A stretch of 5,284 bases of DNA from Escherichia coli (GCF_036507355.1 NZ_AP027882.1), one strand, 5' to 3'; shown: positions 338 through 5,125, numbered from the stretch's first letter. Numbers and translations are program-made. Notes: a model not told the origin generated them from the letters alone.

Positions 338-1862
338 AATTCACTCGCGCGGTGCGGGCTCAGGCAGTGGTCCGGTGGATTATCTGCTGGGAAAAGACCG
401 GCAACGCGAACAGGCCAGTGTGCTGCGCGGCAACCCTGAATATGTGCGCGAGCTTATCGACGGCTGCGACTTTTCCCGCGCCTACACTTCCGGTGTGCTG
501 TCATTCCAGGAGCCGGACATTGCGGATGCCGAGAAATCGCGCCTGATGGATGAATGGGAGCACACGCTGCTGACCGGCCTCGACCGTGACCAGTACGCCT
601 GTCTGTGGGTGGAGCACCGCGACAAGGGACGGCTTGAGCTGAATTTTGTCATCCCGAACATCGAATTGCAGAGCGGCAAACGCCTTCAGCCCTACTTTGA
701 CCGCGCCGACCGCCCCCGCGTCAACGCCTGGCAGACCCTGACTAATGACCGGCTGGGGCTGCGTGACCCGAACGACCCGACCTGTCGCCGACCGCTGACA
801 CAGGCCAGCGATCTGCCCCGCGACAAACAGCTGGCGGCAGAGAAAATCACCACCGGCCTGATGAACCTGATGCAGCAGGGTGTGATCCGCAGCCGGCAGG
901 ACGTGGTGGCGCAGCTGGAAAGCTACGGCCTGACCGTGGCGCGGGAAACGAAAAGCAGCATCAGCATTGCCGATCCGGACGGTGGCAGAAATATCCGGCT
1001 GAAAGGAATGATTTATGAGCGAGATTTTAAATTTGGCGAAGGGCTTCGAGGAGAAATCGAAGCAGCAGGCGCAGGATATCGAGCAGAGCGTGAAGCGCGA
1101 GTTCGGGAGGCTGGAGATGTCTATCGGCGCGGAACTGCAATCAAGCTCGCAGAGCATCAGCAACGCTATCCGCGAGCAGAACGGCAGGCTGACGGGCATG
1201 ATCAGAGCCTCCGTCTCAACGGCGATGGCGTGGATATTCACCAGCTTCGCCCTGCTGATCGGCATCCTGGGCGGGATAATCTGGTTTCAGGGCACGATCA
1301 TCACCTCACGCCTGAGCGAAATGGACAGCTACAGCCAGCAGCTGGCGAGCCTGAAAGCGAAAAGTGGCGCGGGTGTGACGATTTACAGCGACGACTCCCG
1401 CCGGAACACCTACCTGGTGGTGCTGCCGAAGCAGGCACACGGTGTGGAAACCTACACGTCACAGGCCGGAAACACTGTAGTGAAATACACGGCGAAATAA
1501 CCCCATCAGAACGCCCTGAAACGCCTCAGCGCGTTTTTAACACCGAGGACGACCAAAACCATGACCGAGATGGAAAAACAGCTTCTGAGCGCCTTAGAGA
1601 GCTTACAGACAAGCTACGAGCAACAGCAGCAGGCATGGCAGGCCAGCTACAGCAGTTTGCAGCACATGTTCGAGACTACCTCGCAGGCGCTGGAACGCAG
1701 CGACAGGGTCTGTCAGCACTTGAGCAGTCAGGTGAACAGCTTGCGCGATCAGGTCGAGAACTTGAGCTGCAACGTCAGCCGGTTAATGCGCTCGTGAAGC
1801 AGCACGAACACCAGATTCAGATGGAAAAAAAGCGGACACGTTATCACGGCCTTTCAATTTAA
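327..1862 (+). CDS. mbeA: Mobilization relaxase, ColE1 MbeA-like (MOB HEN family)
   Basis: Long GC-rich ORF (open from TTG 303). N-terminus from GTG 327 reads MIVKIHSRGAGSGSGPVDYLLG, closely resembling ColE1 MbeA including the catalytic-Tyr context. Conserved stretch WVEHRDKGRLELNFVIPN (nt about 606-659) carries the His/Glu/Asn motif. GGAG at 316-319 sits 7 nt before GTG 327, so I prefer 327 over 303; the start is uncertain. Confidence 0.88.
   Translation: MIVKIHSRGAGSGSGPVDYLLGKDRQREQASVLRGNPEYVRELIDGCDFSRAYTSGVLSFQEPDIADAEKSRLMDEWEHTLLTGLDRDQYACLWVEHRDKGRLELNFVIPNIELQSGKRLQPYFDRADRPRVNAWQTLTNDRLGLRDPNDPTCRRPLTQASDLPRDKQLAAEKITTGLMNLMQQGVIRSRQDVVAQLESYGLTVARETKSSISIADPDGGRNIRLKGMIYERDFKFGEGLRGEIEAAGAGYRAEREARVREAGDVYRRGTAIKLAEHQQRYPRAERQADGHDQSLRLNGDGVDIHQLRPADRHPGRDNLVSGHDHHLTPERNGQLQPAAGEPESEKWRGCDDLQRRLPPEHLPGGAAEAGTRCGNLHVTGRKHCSEIHGEITPSERPETPQRVFNTEDDQNHDRDGKTASERLRELTDKLRATAAGMAGQLQQFAAHVRDYLAGAGTQRQGLSALEQSGEQLARSGRELELQRQPVNALVKQHEHQIQMEKKRTRYHGLSI
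1015..1500 (+). CDS. mbeB: Mobilization protein MbeB-like, nested within mbeA in an alternate frame
   Basis: 161-aa ORF in a different frame from mbeA, AAGGA 7 nt upstream of the ATG, central hydrophobic segment (AMAWIFTSFALLIGILGGIIWF). Position and size match the mbeB gene nested in ColE1 mbeA. Confidence 0.75.
   Translation: MSEILNLAKGFEEKSKQQAQDIEQSVKREFGRLEMSIGAELQSSSQSISNAIREQNGRLTGMIRASVSTAMAWIFTSFALLIGILGGIIWFQGTIITSRLSEMDSYSQQLASLKAKSGAGVTIYSDDSRRNTYLVVLPKQAHGVETYTSQAGNTVVKYTAK
1561..1797 (+). CDS. mbeD: MbeD-like mobilization/entry-exclusion protein, nested in the 3' part of mbeA
   Basis: 78-aa ORF in the same alternate frame as mbeB, GAGGA upstream, Gln/Ser-rich probable coiled coil (MTEMEKQLLSALESLQ..). 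Matches the position and character of ColE1 mbeD. Confidence 0.7.
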   Translation: MTEMEKQLLSALESLQTSYEQQQQAWQASYSSLQHMFETTSQALERSDRVCQHLSSQVNSLRDQVENLSCNVSRLMRS

Positions 1863-1897
1863 GAGTCATGTAAGTTGTTTTTAAGGTTTTTTTTAAC

Positions 1898-1925
1898 TTG
1901 ATATAAGGTCTATGTAATGTATATT
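1898..1925 (+). promoter_or_regulatory. Candidate sigma70 promoter (TTGATA, 16-bp spacer, TATATT) in the AT-rich islet, upstream of the 78-aa ORF
   Basis: TTGATA at 1898-1903 and TATATT at 1920-1925 with a 16-bp spacer, in a strongly AT-rich intergenic stretch. Sequence-pattern call only. Confidence 0.3.
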
Positions 1926-1958
1926 TATCTCGATTTTTAATTGAGGTAAAAAGTAAAA

Positions 1959-2195
1959 ATGGCTAAGGGTGCTCAAGCAATTTCTAAAGAAATAAACGAG
2001 TTAATGAGAAAAAACGGGAATGAGTGCATTACCTTGAAGTGGGAGCAGTTCTACGAGATATGTGAAAGAGAAAGGCTTGCAGAAGTAGTCATGGAAAGAG
2101 TGTCAGAAAGCCTTAAAAAAAATGACCTTCATATTATCTACGGTAACAACGTGATTATCGTAAGAGATTTCTGTTGGAAACCCGTTTCTCTTTAG
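1959..2195 (+). CDS. Hypothetical small protein (78 aa), unknown function
   Basis: ATG at 1959 preceded by GAGGT (1944-1948). AT-rich codon usage distinct from the flanking GC-rich genes. No family recognised from the translation. Only ORF in the islet. Confidence 0.5.
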   Translation: MAKGAQAISKEINELMRKNGNECITLKWEQFYEICERERLAEVVMERVSESLKKNDLHIIYGNNVIIVRDFCWKPVSL

Positions 2196-2201
2196 TGATT
2201 A

Positions 2202-2229
2202 GTGACAACGTGTTGTTTTAAGGTATAAG
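2202..2229 (+). promoter_or_regulatory. Candidate rep promoter (GTGACA, 16-bp spacer, TATAAG)
   Basis: GTGACA at 2202-2207 and TATAAG at 2224-2229. Would give a leader of roughly 140 nt before the rep start, consistent with leader-based control of ColE2-type rep genes. Pattern-based only. Confidence 0.3.
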
Positions 2230-2373
2230 TTTAACGGCAGAAAAAACAAAGCCCCGGCAATCATGAGCTATCTTGGCGGATGAGCATGACTACCAGGGCC
2301 AGGTACAAAACCTTGAAAGGATATTAGCACATGAACTGTGCCAGACAACAGCCCGCCATAAGCGCAGGGCGCT

Positions 2374-3270
2374 TTGAGTAACGCCGCACTCGAACTATTC
2401 AACGAACGCTTGCCGCACAAGCCGTACTTTTCGGACGATTTGCACTTTGGTGTACGCATTGCCGGCAAGGAACGCGCCATTCTGGCGAAATACATCCAGT
2501 TCAATCAGCCTCATGCCATGTTCTGGCTGGGATTCGATGTTGATCGCGCCGGTGCCGCTATTGACTGGAGTGACCGCAATGCTCCCGCGCCCACACTGAC
2601 CATCACCAACCCCGAAAACGGACACGCGCATCTGCTGTACGCGCTAAAAACCTCGATACGCACAGCGCCGGACGGAAAAATGAAGCCGCTGCGCTACGCT
2701 GCCGCCGTGGAGAACGCGCTACGTAAAAAATTAGAGGCTGACGCGGGGTATTCAGGGTTAATCTGCAAAAATCCGAACCACAGGCACTGGAAAATTGCCG
2801 TGTGGCAGCCGGAACTCTACACACTGGACTGGCTGGCCGATTTCCTTGACCTGAACGCTGCGAACGATAAAGAAATCGTTGCCGACTACGGATTAGGCCG
2901 TAACTGCACCTTGTTCGACAAAACCCGAAAATGGGCTTATCGTGCTATTCGTCAGGGCTGGCCTGAGTATGGACAATGGATGCTAGCTTGTGTTGAAAGA
3001 GCTACAGCTTACAACATGCAGTTTTCAGCACCATTAGATGAAAAGGAGGTCATAAGTATAGCGAAGAGTATATCTAAATGGACATATTCTAAATTCACAC
3101 AGCAATCTTTCGATGAATATGTTAAGAAAACACACTCAGCTGAATGTCAGAGTATAAGAGGGCGCAAGAGCTCTGGCGGAGGGCGGCCAAAAATAAGATC
3201 TGAGGAGTGGGTCTCTCTAGGTATTAGTCGCGCTACGTGGTATAGGAAGCACTATAAAAATGAAAATTAA
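2374..3270 (+). CDS. rep: ColE2-type plasmid replication initiator (Rep, primase-like replicase with PriCT-like and C-terminal HTH regions)
   Basis: 298-aa ORF starting at TTG 2374, with an in-frame stop at 2359-2361 just upstream. Translation (..ERLPHKPYFSDD..FDVDRAGAAIDWSDRNAPAP..NGHAHLLYAL..YSGLICKNPNHRHW..GLGRNCTLFDKTRKWAYRAIRQGWP..) follows the conserved blocks of ColE2-family Rep as I recall them. C-terminus has a basic tract and an HTH-like WVSLGISRATWYRK. Base composition switches from GC-rich to AT-rich near 2950. Confidence 0.85.
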   Translation: MSNAALELFNERLPHKPYFSDDLHFGVRIAGKERAILAKYIQFNQPHAMFWLGFDVDRAGAAIDWSDRNAPAPTLTITNPENGHAHLLYALKTSIRTAPDGKMKPLRYAAAVENALRKKLEADAGYSGLICKNPNHRHWKIAVWQPELYTLDWLADFLDLNAANDKEIVADYGLGRNCTLFDKTRKWAYRAIRQGWPEYGQWMLACVERATAYNMQFSAPLDEKEVISIAKSISKWTYSKFTQQSFDEYVKKTHSAECQSIRGRKSSGGGRPKIRSEEWVSLGISRATWYRKHYKNEN

Positions 3271-3916
3271 GATGTATGTCTTGTCTTTGTTTTTTTTGTT
3301 TATACCAATAATTTTTTATTTTTCTGGTATTGATGATGTCTGGAACGTTTTTACCAAAGCTAATGGTTTTTGTGATGGCGTCAGTAATCGTATTGTCTGT
3401 ATAACAGGTAATATGGGCAACCAGCTATCTCTATCCGTGTCAAGGTTATGCGTTTGTATTTTTTTGGTCTTTTTGTGTGGCTATACTTACTGGTGGTATA
3501 AGAGACAGCTTTCATTTTTGGATAGGGGGATTACCTCTGCCGAAGTGGTTGTTGTTGGATGCGAAAAAGAGTCAACTGAGTATCTGTCATTTTTGTCAAC
3601 TTACATAATGCCCCTGGTTTTTACAGACTTAACAAAACCTTCAAATGTTTTCAATTTCATTTTTATTCTAGTTATTGTCGGATTTCTTCATATAAAAACA
3701 AGAAGGATTCATAGCAACCCAACGCTTTCATTGTTTGGTGTTTCTGCTTACAAAATTGACTATATAATCAGGGTTGATGGTCAGGATTCTGATATCACAA
3801 AAGGATTGATTGTCCTGTCGAAGGATGAGATATCTGTGAAAAGTGTAATTCGAATCATAAAAAAAGAAGACTACATTACATTCGCAAAATACATAAGGAA
3901 CGATTCAAATGGCTGA
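3260..3916 (+). CDS. Multi-pass inner-membrane protein, unknown function (about 4 predicted TM helices plus a roughly 70-aa soluble C-terminal domain)
   Basis: 218-aa AT-rich ORF. Hydrophobic segments at about aa 5-23, 57-80, 108-121 and 129-145, followed by a charged tail. ATG 3260 overlaps the rep stop (3268-3270); AGGAAG at 3244-3249. An alternative in-frame ATG is at 3272. Confidence 0.7.
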   Translation: MKIKMYVLSLFFLFIPIIFYFSGIDDVWNVFTKANGFCDGVSNRIVCITGNMGNQLSLSVSRLCVCIFLVFLCGYTYWWYKRQLSFLDRGITSAEVVVVGCEKESTEYLSFLSTYIMPLVFTDLTKPSNVFNFIFILVIVGFLHIKTRRIHSNPTLSLFGVSAYKIDYIIRVDGQDSDITKGLIVLSKDEISVKSVIRIIKKEDYITFAKYIRNDSNG

Positions 3917-5054
3917 AGAAAAACTGGATTTAAGCGAGCTCCATCATGACGCGCAGAAGGCCTCTGAGCTCTCATCCTATTACTCCCACTTCGATACAAA
4001 GGTAGAAGATTTTGACCTTCATGTATATTTTAACTTTAGGCATAAGATAAAGGGCGGTGATGGAAAGTACCGTTACGAATATCGGGTTGCAAAAATAGAT
4101 GATACTACTGTTCTGAAAGAATCAATCAAAGATAACGTGATAACAAAAACCCTTAATGATCTAAGTAGCGGTAGAGTTGCAGTATCTGATATAAAGCAGC
4201 TTAGTGATAGGGCTAGCACTATATCATTTTTAGAAGATGCAAAGTCATACAAAGATGAACAGATGTCTTTTTTGACAGGTATTATTTTTGATAAGGGATT
4301 TGGAGGTGATGGGGATATTCCTGTCGTCAATTTTGAGAAGTTTGATAAAATATCAAAGGTTGACTCAATTGTTTTTGTCTTAAGGAAAGGTGATAAATGT
4401 ATAACAATATACAAAAAACAGTATCCTATACAGAACCTGACCAAACAGAAAAATCATTACTTCTCATATAGCAAAGATACGTTATCAAAAATAGATGCTG
4501 ACATGATATCAATTGATGGAAAAGCCTCTATTGTTTTTGTTAAAGGTACTGCATATATCTATGATCAGGATGTTTTTGAGAAATTTTTCGGATACAAGAA
4601 GTGGATAAAAAAAGTTGCGGGCGAATTTGTTTCTGAAATGAAGCAAAAATTTTCATCGATAGTAGACTTTGGAAAAGTTACCGACAGGCTTGAAAAAGAA
4701 AGTGCTGATGCAGATGCCTTTTCAAGGAAACTGGCAAGAATATATAACAATAAAGATCTAAGAGCTTCCTTTAATACTGTTACACCAGAAAAAATCAGTG
4801 ATTTTTTAGTTGAAAATGAGTATTTCGCTAGATTGCTAAAGTACAAATCAGCGGAAGAACCTTTAGAAGTATCAACCCATGATCAGCAGGAAGCATTTAT
4901 ATTAATAGTTTCTGAGGGCGTTCTTCGCTCGCTTATTACTGGTTTTGATTATTTAAGCCCTGCCGCGAAAAGAAAAATTGCGACAGGCCAAACCGCGCAA
5001 AAACCTTCTTCTGTAGTAACTAGGATACCCTCCAGCGCATCTGACGCCGCCTAA
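3909..5054 (+). CDS. Hypothetical 381-aa soluble protein, unknown function; candidate effector or sensor partner of the upstream membrane protein
   Basis: Long AT-rich ORF with AAGGAA 8 nt upstream. ATG 3909 overlaps the upstream stop (3914-3916) in an ATGGCTGA junction. No Walker, HxH, nuclease or other motif recognisable by eye. Ends just upstream of a strong hairpin plus T-run. Confidence 0.8.
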   Translation: MAEEKLDLSELHHDAQKASELSSYYSHFDTKVEDFDLHVYFNFRHKIKGGDGKYRYEYRVAKIDDTTVLKESIKDNVITKTLNDLSSGRVAVSDIKQLSDRASTISFLEDAKSYKDEQMSFLTGIIFDKGFGGDGDIPVVNFEKFDKISKVDSIVFVLRKGDKCITIYKKQYPIQNLTKQKNHYFSYSKDTLSKIDADMISIDGKASIVFVKGTAYIYDQDVFEKFFGYKKWIKKVAGEFVSEMKQKFSSIVDFGKVTDRLEKESADADAFSRKLARIYNNKDLRASFNTVTPEKISDFLVENEYFARLLKYKSAEEPLEVSTHDQQEAFILIVSEGVLRSLITGFDYLSPAAKRKIATGQTAQKPSSVVTRIPSSASDAA

Positions 5055-5077
5055 CGAACGAGCTTGAGACAAAACAA

Positions 5078-5125
5078 CCTATATCAGATAACAGCCCTCT
5101 CTAAGAGAGGGCTGTTTTTTTTGCA
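5078..5125 (+). other. Candidate ColE2-type replication origin element
   Basis: TATCAGATAACAGC at about 5081-5094 matches the core of the ColE2 ori as I remember it (recall, not search), and is followed immediately by the hairpin and T-run. It lies about 1.8 kb downstream of rep, not directly after it. Confidence 0.4.
5091..5122 (+). terminator. Rho-independent terminator-like hairpin with T-run closing the rep-cargo operon
   Basis: Perfect inverted repeat ACAGCCCTCTC (5091-5101) / GAGAGGGCTGT (5105-5115) around a TAA loop, followed by eight T (5115-5122). Read directly from the sequence. Confidence 0.65.

Follow-up and report, generated by a model that had tools for sequence, protein, structure and literature searches.

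A gene and a phased repeat array in an AT-rich islet

The stretch of Escherichia coli DNA analysed here (GCF_036507355.1, NZ_AP027882.1; 5,284 nucleotides (nt), referred to at this full length as the window) is a complete circular plasmid, typed as Col(Ye4449) and MOBP. Between its mobilisation genes and its ColE2-type replicon lies an AT-rich islet (from ~1808 or 1860 to 2229) that contains a small gene, which we call orf78, and an array of short direct repeats in which the promoter of that gene is embedded. The features of the islet and of its border with the replicon are:

1858–1925, plus strand: TnTAAG array in 11-bp units, with TAAG cores at 1860, 1871, 1882 and 1904
1898–1925, plus strand: sigma-70-like promoter of orf78, with −35 TTGATA (1898–1903), a 16-nt spacer and −10 TATATT (1920–1925), 10/12 matches
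1959–2195, plus strand: orf78, 78 codons, without a family match
2193–2206, plus strand: two-copy repeat TAGTGAT/TAGTGAC, beginning on the orf78 stop codon
2202–2231, plus strand: presumed rep promoter, with −35 GTGACA (2202–2207) and −10 TATAAG (2224–2229) or TAAGTT (2226–2231)
2236–2330, minus strand: putative antisense RNA (ColE2 RNAI type) of the rep leader; after a long hairpin comes a U-run that ends near 2238

A first-pass annotation of the region had described an abrupt change of composition after the stop codon of the relaxase gene mbeA, and this is borne out by the GC content, which is 0.575 over 1601–1800, 0.32 over 1801–2000, 0.345–0.40 up to 2300 and then 0.48–0.56. The same annotation had placed a 78-amino-acid (aa) open reading frame (ORF) behind the relaxase gene. 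This frame is found at 1959–2195, and comparison with five plasmids whose proteins are 83–91% identical gives a ratio of nonsynonymous to synonymous substitution rates (dN/dS) of 0.03–0.06 at dS 0.7–2.3, with substitutions among relatives concentrated at third codon positions. The frame had been called an orphan, which it is not: a word-indexed search returned 48 close homologues with 60–99% identity, nearly all of them 78–80 aa long, and a profile search of 1.84 billion representative proteins returned 110 clusters at 50% identity. The frame is conserved among related plasmids and matches no known small plasmid protein; judged from its substitution pattern, orf78 is a real gene.

That it belongs to no recognisable family was also correct. 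There is no match to orf78 in Pfam, NCBIfam, PHROGs or PADLOC, 80 family members scanned singly against Pfam gave only scattered weak matches to winged-helix domains (expectation value E > 0.01), and searching the sequences of the Protein Data Bank (PDB) with two profiles gave nothing meaningful. Almost all of the named homologues are annotated at their source as 'hypothetical protein', and the ORF is mentioned in no paper found by our literature search. Members of the clusters are mostly stand-alone proteins of 75–90 aa. A few are tandem fusions of two domains with lengths of 166–198 aa (P0052, P0053, P0056 and P0091), and because the domain occurs in such tandem fusions, the family's sequences suggest that its single-domain members act as dimers or higher oligomers.

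The first-pass annotation had proposed a structure search for the 78-aa protein, and its outcome points to a winged helix. AlphaFold2, supplied with the family alignment, predicts (predicted local distance difference test, pLDDT, 90; predicted template modelling score, pTM, 0.74) the order helix 1–strand 1–helix 2–helix 3–strand 2–strand 3, in which a beta-hairpin wing follows the third helix, a winged-helix topology. Matches found by Foldseek in the PDB were weak (E ≥ 0.08) and all were winged-helix domains, and the best matches among viral models were uncharacterised jumbo-phage proteins (query template modelling score, TM-score, 0.8; E ~3e-4). As modelled, the orf78 protein would represent an undescribed family with a common fold. 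Residues conserved across the family are T25, W28, F31, Y32, R37, R39, G62, D70 and the hydrophobic face of helix 3, together with a C-terminal D-x-N/C-F/W-x-P motif.

The informative repeat of the islet, unseen in the first-pass annotation, is the array of TAAG cores phased at 11 bp, which corresponds to one turn of the DNA helix. Beginning at the stop codon of the relaxase gene, it surrounds the orf78 promoter, −35 element included. Relative to the ATG the cores lie at −99, −88, −77 and −55, giving spacings of 11, 11 and 22 bp, and degenerate units occupy in-phase positions at 1893 (TTAAC) and 1915 (TAAT). On both strands of the whole plasmid TnTAAG occurs 19 times, six of these being within 1858–1907 and 2217–2229. 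A 24-nt direct repeat common to the orf78 and rep promoters (1874–1897 versus 2212–2235, 71% identity) was considered as a duplication and discarded, as the shared TnTAAG units explain it better.

Several lines of evidence suggest that the array travels with the gene. TAAG is found 22 times in eight 120-nt upstream regions of homologues, against 9.1 ± 2.75 in dinucleotide shuffles (0/2000), and its reverse complement CTTA is found only three times in these regions. Upstream regions of homologues from unrelated contexts cannot be aligned with each other, and each has the TAAG motif. We re-tested the phasing with the last 20 nt upstream of the genes left out, on account of TAAGGA ribosome-binding sites, and with two further contexts added to give ten. 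Multiples of 11 bp account for 22 of 23 pairs and for 12 of 13 consecutive spacings, which 0/200,000 random placements reach, and other periods between 7 and 15 fit none of the pairs. Without the locus that shares array positions with the plasmid, eight of nine consecutive spacings fit (0/200,000 random placements). The consensus of the stacked units is yTnTAAGrwt, and the T at −2 is invariant (27/27).

The contexts that bear such arrays are ColE2 plasmids, a RepL plasmid, an Aeromonas replicon, a chromosomal island, an Acinetobacter toxin-antitoxin cluster, loci beside HEC-09 and HEPN genes, and a prophage-like contig. More distant homologues (28–37% identity) have the core in inverted form, CTTA(C); five of the seven loci examined show it with spacings of 11, 22 or 44 bp. 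From these sequences, array and orf78 family look like a portable module composed of a DNA-binding protein and its binding sites.

The remaining elements of the islet are of unequal standing. A consensus scan of 1700–2500 calls a single promoter-like site, the one in front of orf78, which is not above the number in shuffles (mean 1.4). The positions of its hexamers (TTGnnn and TAnnnT) are kept in six related plasmids while the flanking bases vary, and the sigma-70 promoter that had been proposed for the islet can be retained. The Shine–Dalgarno sequence proposed with it holds in part: GAGG is present at 1943–1946, at a distance of 12 nt from the ATG, and is replaced in relatives by GGAA or GGTA. 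Owing to this long spacing and to the replacement, the ribosome-binding site, which lies within an A-rich leader, appears weak. The tandem TAGTGA repeat reported behind orf78 likewise exists and, as had been stated, overlaps the presumed rep −35, but it is not conserved in relatives, which carry TAGAGATGAGTGAC or TAGAGACTAATGAC in its place. We therefore reject it as a functional element and judge it a product of chance; Tandem Repeats Finder does not report it at score 30.

The rep promoter was inferred from its position only and is not called by the consensus scan; 16 nt (N16) separate GTGACA from TATAAG. Two TnTAAG motifs lie 7 bp apart in its spacer and −10 (2217–2222 and 2224–2229), and the pair is kept in seven ColE2-type plasmids that carry orf78. 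A dyad in the spacer, ACAACnnGTTGT, was also considered and rejected; it is not kept in relatives of ~85% nucleotide identity. No terminator-like site was found by a scan of the plus strand over 2195–2374. The antisense candidate, folded on the minus strand from 2330 to 2236, gives −32.8 kcal/mol (z −3.6), and Rfam yields two sub-threshold matches, one CopA-like (minus strand, 2244–2328, E 0.056) and one to PK-repBA (plus strand, 2249–2363, 35.8 bits, E 2.8e-5). Fold and matches suggest that the rep leader (2236–2373) is subject to ColE2-type antisense control with an IncB/CopA-like structure. The antisense RNA region borders directly on the islet, and the conserved ColE2 replicon begins with it.

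A swappable slot and its genomic surroundings

Comparison with other plasmids indicates where the islet begins and ends as a unit. From ~2223 on, in the rep leader, 188 plasmids match the window, and the orf78 protein is encoded in 17 plasmid records. In the three sister plasmids of Col(Ye4449) type that we opened (NZ_CP095136.1, NZ_CP080355.1 and NZ_CP056353.1; loci L022, L023 and L024), a relE/parE-nadS pair occupies the interval between mbeD and rep in the same orientation, and homology to our plasmid breaks at 1807 and resumes at 2230. Most plasmids of Col(Ye4449) type, over 100 of them, have such a toxin-antitoxin pair in place of orf78; the sisters with the pair come mostly from Klebsiella, Citrobacter and Enterobacter. 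By sequence comparison, the islet is one of two alternative cassettes in a swappable slot, the other being the relE/parE-nadS toxin-antitoxin pair.

Within the Col(Ye4449)-type group orf78 lies between mbeD and rep wherever it is present, and the cargo that follows rep in orf78 plasmids varies: Kiwa genes here, an Abi gene in Serratia, others elsewhere. Two plasmids of 3.9 kb have no cargo after rep, leaving orf78 as the sole accessory gene; NZ_AP026891.1 (3,944 bp) consists of mob, orf78 and rep only. The position after rep is a second variable cargo slot in the sister plasmids, which have there an AAA ATPase, a DUF4231 protein and others.

Homologues with 61–78% identity are found in a variety of settings: a RepL-type mobilisable plasmid, an Aeromonas replicon beside transposases, an 806-kb contig near a transposase and a BrxR-like gene, an Acinetobacter contig between two toxin-antitoxin pairs, a Pseudomonadaceae contig, and a prophage-like contig where the gene adjoins cI- and cII-like genes. 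One close homologue is directly upstream of a HEC-09 NYN-domain protein (PADLOC 2.9e-27; L025, 3195–3884) and another directly upstream of a HEPN protein resembling PD-T4-5/AbiD (5.2e-15; L034, 1278–1928); at L034 a pair of TAAG motifs spaced by 11 bp lies 18–29 nt ahead of the HEPN gene start. Locus scans of genome contigs returned only four loci, and those of viral contigs three. Members of the family with ~30% identity overlap or abut a gene for a protein of 347–360 aa (L007, 8001–9303; L014, 292–1631). This neighbour has no match in Pfam or PADLOC, and it is possible, from the gene arrangement, that the two form a two-gene system.

These settings also bear on functions that might be assigned to orf78 from its neighbours. 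The first-pass annotation had compared its place with that of mbeE in ColE1, a comparison that proved unproductive: the best tblastn match to the whole of ColE1 has E 1.0 over 8 residues, so that we find no similarity to ColE1 products, and homologues occur without Mbe-type mob genes and beside an unrelated relaxase. Homologues without both ColE2 rep and Mbe mob genes exist, and we reject a strict linkage to either. The antitoxin of a type II toxin-antitoxin system was likewise rejected, as no cognate toxin gene was found in the same operon and the neighbours vary between contexts; in the plasmid itself, 1863–2267 holds no second ORF of at least 40 aa on either strand, leaving orf78 without a partner ORF.

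Outside the islet the plasmid carries the following genes:

11–337: mobC (Pfam NikA-like/MobC)
to 1862: MbeA-like relaxase (Pfam Relaxase)
1015–1500: mbeB (Pfam MbeB_N)
1561–1797: mbeD (Pfam MbeD_MobD)
2374–3270: ColE2-type primase Rep (Pfam Replicase and PriCT_1)
3260–5054: Kiwa pair kwaA/kwaB (NCBIfam and PADLOC)

With orf78 these are the only genes of the plasmid (mobC, relaxase, mbeB, mbeD, orf78, rep, kwaA and kwaB). The Kiwa anti-phage pair is complete and forms an AT-rich cargo (GC ~0.33), with scores of 2.8e-51 (NCBIfam) and 1.9e-121 (PADLOC) for KwaA and 1.2e-220 (PADLOC) for KwaB. Because the kwaA start at 3260 overlaps the rep stop at 3270, kwaA looks co-transcribed with rep. A ColE2-type origin-like sequence at ~5064–5096 (TGAGAC...TATCAGATAACAGCCC), the putative origin, lies 3' of the Kiwa genes and not directly after rep; its core, TATCAGATAACAGC, is kept at the equivalent place, ~200 nt before mobC, in seven of seven related plasmids. 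With the Kiwa genes between rep and this sequence, the defence cargo would thus sit between rep and ori. An arrangement with cargo in this position has also been described for pHW66 and pUB6060 (PMC2831885). Just past the origin-like sequence is a GC-rich hairpin with a T-run (5091–5122; CAGCCCTCTCTAAGAGAGGGCTG TTTTTTTT), seen in the sequence as the first clear intrinsic terminator 3' of the co-oriented orf78, rep, kwaA and kwaB. Inside rep, GC falls from ~0.53 to 0.41 in the 3' third (~2950–3270), and among relatives the C-terminal part of Rep is far more divergent than the N-terminal part (60% identity over residues 167–293 versus 93% over 1–165 in L002). Possibly the end of Rep that recognises ori was swapped along with the cargo.

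The plasmid differs by six single-nucleotide polymorphisms from pSE18-SA00377-0-P4 of Salmonella Agona, and the 5,284-bp plasmid is also on record in Salmonella enterica, E. coli and the plant pathogen Dickeya fangzhongdai, with 98–100% identity over the compared parts. Since the same plasmid has been recorded in Salmonella, E. coli and Dickeya, these records indicate its recent spread across families of Enterobacterales. The published description of the near-identical Salmonella plasmid covers only replicon type and mob genes.

What the cassette may do

We favour, with a probability of roughly 0.55, the view that the islet is a self-contained accessory cassette, made up of the array, the promoter embedded in it and the winged-helix gene, and that it probably serves plasmid maintenance or regulation. 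The orf78 protein would bind the repeats cooperatively along one face of the DNA, cover its own −35 and spacer and in this way repress its own transcription. Transcripts escaping repression would run into the rep leader, as there is no terminator-like site 3' of orf78. Beyond autorepression, the bound protein might cluster or position plasmids through the repeat array in the manner of StbA or ParR, or it might modulate rep transcription via the two TnTAAG motifs in the rep promoter. Plasmid maintenance or regulation, and not a host trait, is the probable purpose because orf78 is the sole accessory gene on the two 3.9-kb plasmids and because the slot otherwise holds a toxin-antitoxin stability module. 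We infer DNA binding, autorepression and a role in plasmid stability or copy number from these features together.

A number of observations weigh against this view. Some TAAG occurrences, at −10 to −13, are Shine–Dalgarno-like TAAGGA sequences, though these were excluded from the phasing re-test, and the repeats adjoin T-tracts, so they could act in part through DNA curvature. The two rep-promoter motifs are spaced by 7 bp instead of 11, their conservation is limited to a single group of closely related plasmids, and near rep of the RepL plasmid TnTAAG is absent. In the predicted structure, the helix at the recognition position (residues 42–53, EVVMERVSESLK) is acidic and is variable on its exposed face, and the net charge of the protein is about zero (12 K/R versus 12 D/E). 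Conservation is best in strand 1, helix 2, the R37-x-R39 loop and the C-terminal RDFCW-P tail. This pattern of charge and conservation, as mapped on the model, would also fit a protein-binding winged helix, and many of the Foldseek matches are winged helices of that kind, for example Stn1, ESCRT-II and ScpA. Finally, homologues also reside in chromosomes and in a prophage-like contig, which speaks against a role confined to plasmid partition or copy control. Since such homologues often stand beside defence or toxin genes, the orf78 protein might also act as a controller or in conflict.

A broader proposal, which we consider somewhat unlikely, is that the cassette is a previously unrecognised portable module, in which a winged-helix protein polymerises on 11-bp-phased TAAG repeats for a selfish function in maintenance or conflict. 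Examples would be clustering or anchoring of small plasmids that is independent of a nucleoside triphosphatase (NTPase), or the silencing or exclusion of competing elements. Such a module would move among ColE2 and RepL plasmids, prophages and islands, and could replace a toxin-antitoxin stability cassette.

Rather doubtful, too, is a CopB-like control of copy number, in which the orf78 protein represses the rep promoter, read-through from the orf78 promoter supplies a basal level of rep mRNA, and the antisense RNA sets its translation. The order and orientation of the elements are those required (promoter, small protein, rep promoter, antisense-RNA target, rep) and orf78 is not separated from rep by a terminator. 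The paired TnTAAG motifs in the rep promoter spacer and −10 are present in seven of seven ColE2-type orf78 plasmids, and at the homologous −10 the plasmids with the toxin-antitoxin pair have TGTAAT, which is not a TAAG sequence. However, the 7-bp spacing of these motifs is unlike that of the 11-bp arrays, and conservation among seven close relatives is weak evidence. Most ColE2/Col(Ye4449) plasmids replicate without orf78, as only 17 plasmids encode it and 188 share the rep leader; homologues are found beside a RepL replicon that lacks TAAG near rep, in chromosomes and in a prophage-like contig; and Pfam gives no match of any kind, so that no CopB-type family is detected.

It is distinctly unlikely that orf78 encodes a controller of neighbouring toxin or defence genes, that is, a regulator which travels with abortive-infection or defence effectors and which would act here on the rep-kwaA-kwaB unit. 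Homologues do stand directly upstream of the HEC-09 NYN and the HEPN PD-T4-5/AbiD-like genes, the start of the HEPN effector is preceded by two TAAG motifs 11 bp apart, and distant homologues overlap the gene for the 347–360-aa protein. Others are found among toxin-antitoxin genes and near BrxR and dynamin-like genes, and there is Kiwa on this plasmid and an Abi gene on the Serratia relative. Yet the neighbours differ in every context and the two 3.9-kb plasmids have no effector at all. Moreover, the homologues at the HEPN and NYN loci are followed by terminator-like hairpins, Kiwa is separated from orf78 by rep with its antisense control, and defence genes abound on small plasmids and islands in any case.

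We regard as improbable, finally, that the protein is a protein-binding winged helix engaged in conflict among mobile elements or against the host (anti-defence, exclusion or a solitary antitoxin-like activity), with the array serving as a curved promoter or as a site for a host factor. The acidic, variable helix at the recognition position, the net charge near zero, the focus of conservation on helix 2 and the RDFCW-P tail, and the many top Foldseek matches to winged helices that do not bind DNA would all agree with it, as would the resemblance to uncharacterised jumbo-phage proteins (query TM-score 0.8 for the best viral-model matches) and the behaviour of the gene as a moron-type cassette that is autonomous, whether on plasmids, in islands or in a prophage-like contig. 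Against it, the TAAG core, the invariant T at −2 and the 11-bp phasing accompany the gene across unalignable contexts down to ~30% identity. Curvature alone hardly explains an array of TAAG that follows the gene, and there is no conserved partner protein. The last candidates, a chance reading frame, a decayed remnant in an AT-rich spacer or an MbeE-like mobilisation accessory gene, might draw on a short, AT-rich frame with no database family and a weak ribosome-binding site, placed immediately behind the mob genes, at a position where small ORFs that are not essential are found in ColE1, but are refuted by the conservation data (dN/dS of 0.03–0.06 and a length kept in 48 homologues and 110 clusters), alongside the confident structure prediction (pLDDT 90), the lack of similarity to any ColE1 frame and the homologues without Mbe-type mob genes.

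Small plasmids of the Col type are very common in Enterobacterales and usually dismissed as 'cryptic', and their upkeep beyond copy number and Xer-type resolution sites is poorly understood. What is newly defined here is a protein family, conserved and so far unannotated, and with it a specific DNA site (TnTAAG repeated every 11 bp), in a cassette that alternates with a toxin-antitoxin stability module in one slot. ColE2-type copy control is otherwise known to run through antisense RNA; should the orf78 protein affect the rep promoter, this control would gain its first input at the level of a protein. Binding of the array by the protein would, in addition, make the cassette a convenient minimal part with autoregulation. 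In practical terms the gain is modest, namely an annotation for a recurrent 'hypothetical protein'.

Comparison with known systems

Some of the known systems resemble the cassette in gene order or position. In plasmid R1 the order is copB, repA promoter, copA antisense RNA and repA, with read-through into rep possible, and CopB of this IncFII plasmid shares with orf78 that the gene of a small protein is directly upstream of, and co-oriented with, an antisense-controlled rep. In contrast to CopB, the orf78 protein has no family match, is absent from most ColE2-type plasmids and is present outside replicons, and the phased array is at its own promoter rather than at rep. The RelE/ParE-NadS cassette fills the identical slot between the relaxase stop and the rep −10. 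It is oriented alike, has a promoter of its own and, as would be the case with orf78, closes with the gene of a small DNA-binding protein just ahead of the rep promoter. It comprises two genes and a recognisable toxin, whereas orf78 has neither a partner ORF nor similarity to an antitoxin family. The iteron-binding initiators RepE (F) and Pi (R6K), with their winged-helix domains, are also among the closest known systems.

Partition systems share the logic of the array. In ParR/parC and TubR/tubC, phased direct repeats surround an autoregulated promoter and are bound cooperatively by a small protein. The parC repeats of R1 are 11 bp long. ParR has a ribbon-helix-helix fold, unlike the winged helix predicted for orf78, and TubR gives no sequence match and no top structural match to orf78. 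Both ParMRC and TubZRC need an adjacent filament-forming NTPase, ParM or TubZ, and none is among the genes of this plasmid. The array of tubC comprises seven 12-bp repeats, which are bound by the winged-helix protein TubR (cited in bioRxiv 10.1101/2022.04.29.490116).

The closest system by architecture appears to be StbA/stbS of the IncW plasmid R388, a segregation and regulation system by which the plasmid is stabilised and positioned and conjugation is modulated. The stbDR repeats are 9 bp long with 2-bp spacers and occur in arrays of two to ten, and StbA of R388, a protein of ~110 aa with a three-helix helix-turn-helix (HTH) that lacks a wing and with a C-terminal domain, has repeat arrays at its own promoter and at a few others and needs no NTPase partner (bioRxiv 10.1101/2022.04.29.490116). 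Both systems have a small DNA-binding protein, in the case of orf78 a putative one, encoded beside transfer genes; in both the promoter of that protein's gene sits within direct repeats of 11-bp period (for orf78, the cores at 1860–1904 around the −35), and neither has a plasmid-encoded NTPase partner. The smaller arrays at other promoters of R388 are comparable to the two motifs in the rep promoter here. The two proteins differ in fold and size, the wingless three-helix HTH of ~110 aa standing against a 78-aa winged helix of the order helix-strand-helix-helix-strand-strand, and the repeats differ in sequence (TTGCATCAT in stbDR versus TnTAAG). No similarity in sequence was detected, and profile searches run on all PDB sequences with E up to 10 brought up neither StbA nor PadR. 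Unlike StbA, orf78 is carried by a small multicopy plasmid and has homologues in chromosomes and a prophage-like contig as well. By analogy, then, the orf78 protein would at most work like the StbA, ParR and TubR systems, without being a member of their families. If it does bind the array, it would provide a second, unrelated case of the StbA style, in which a small DNA-binding protein and phased repeats operate with no NTPase.

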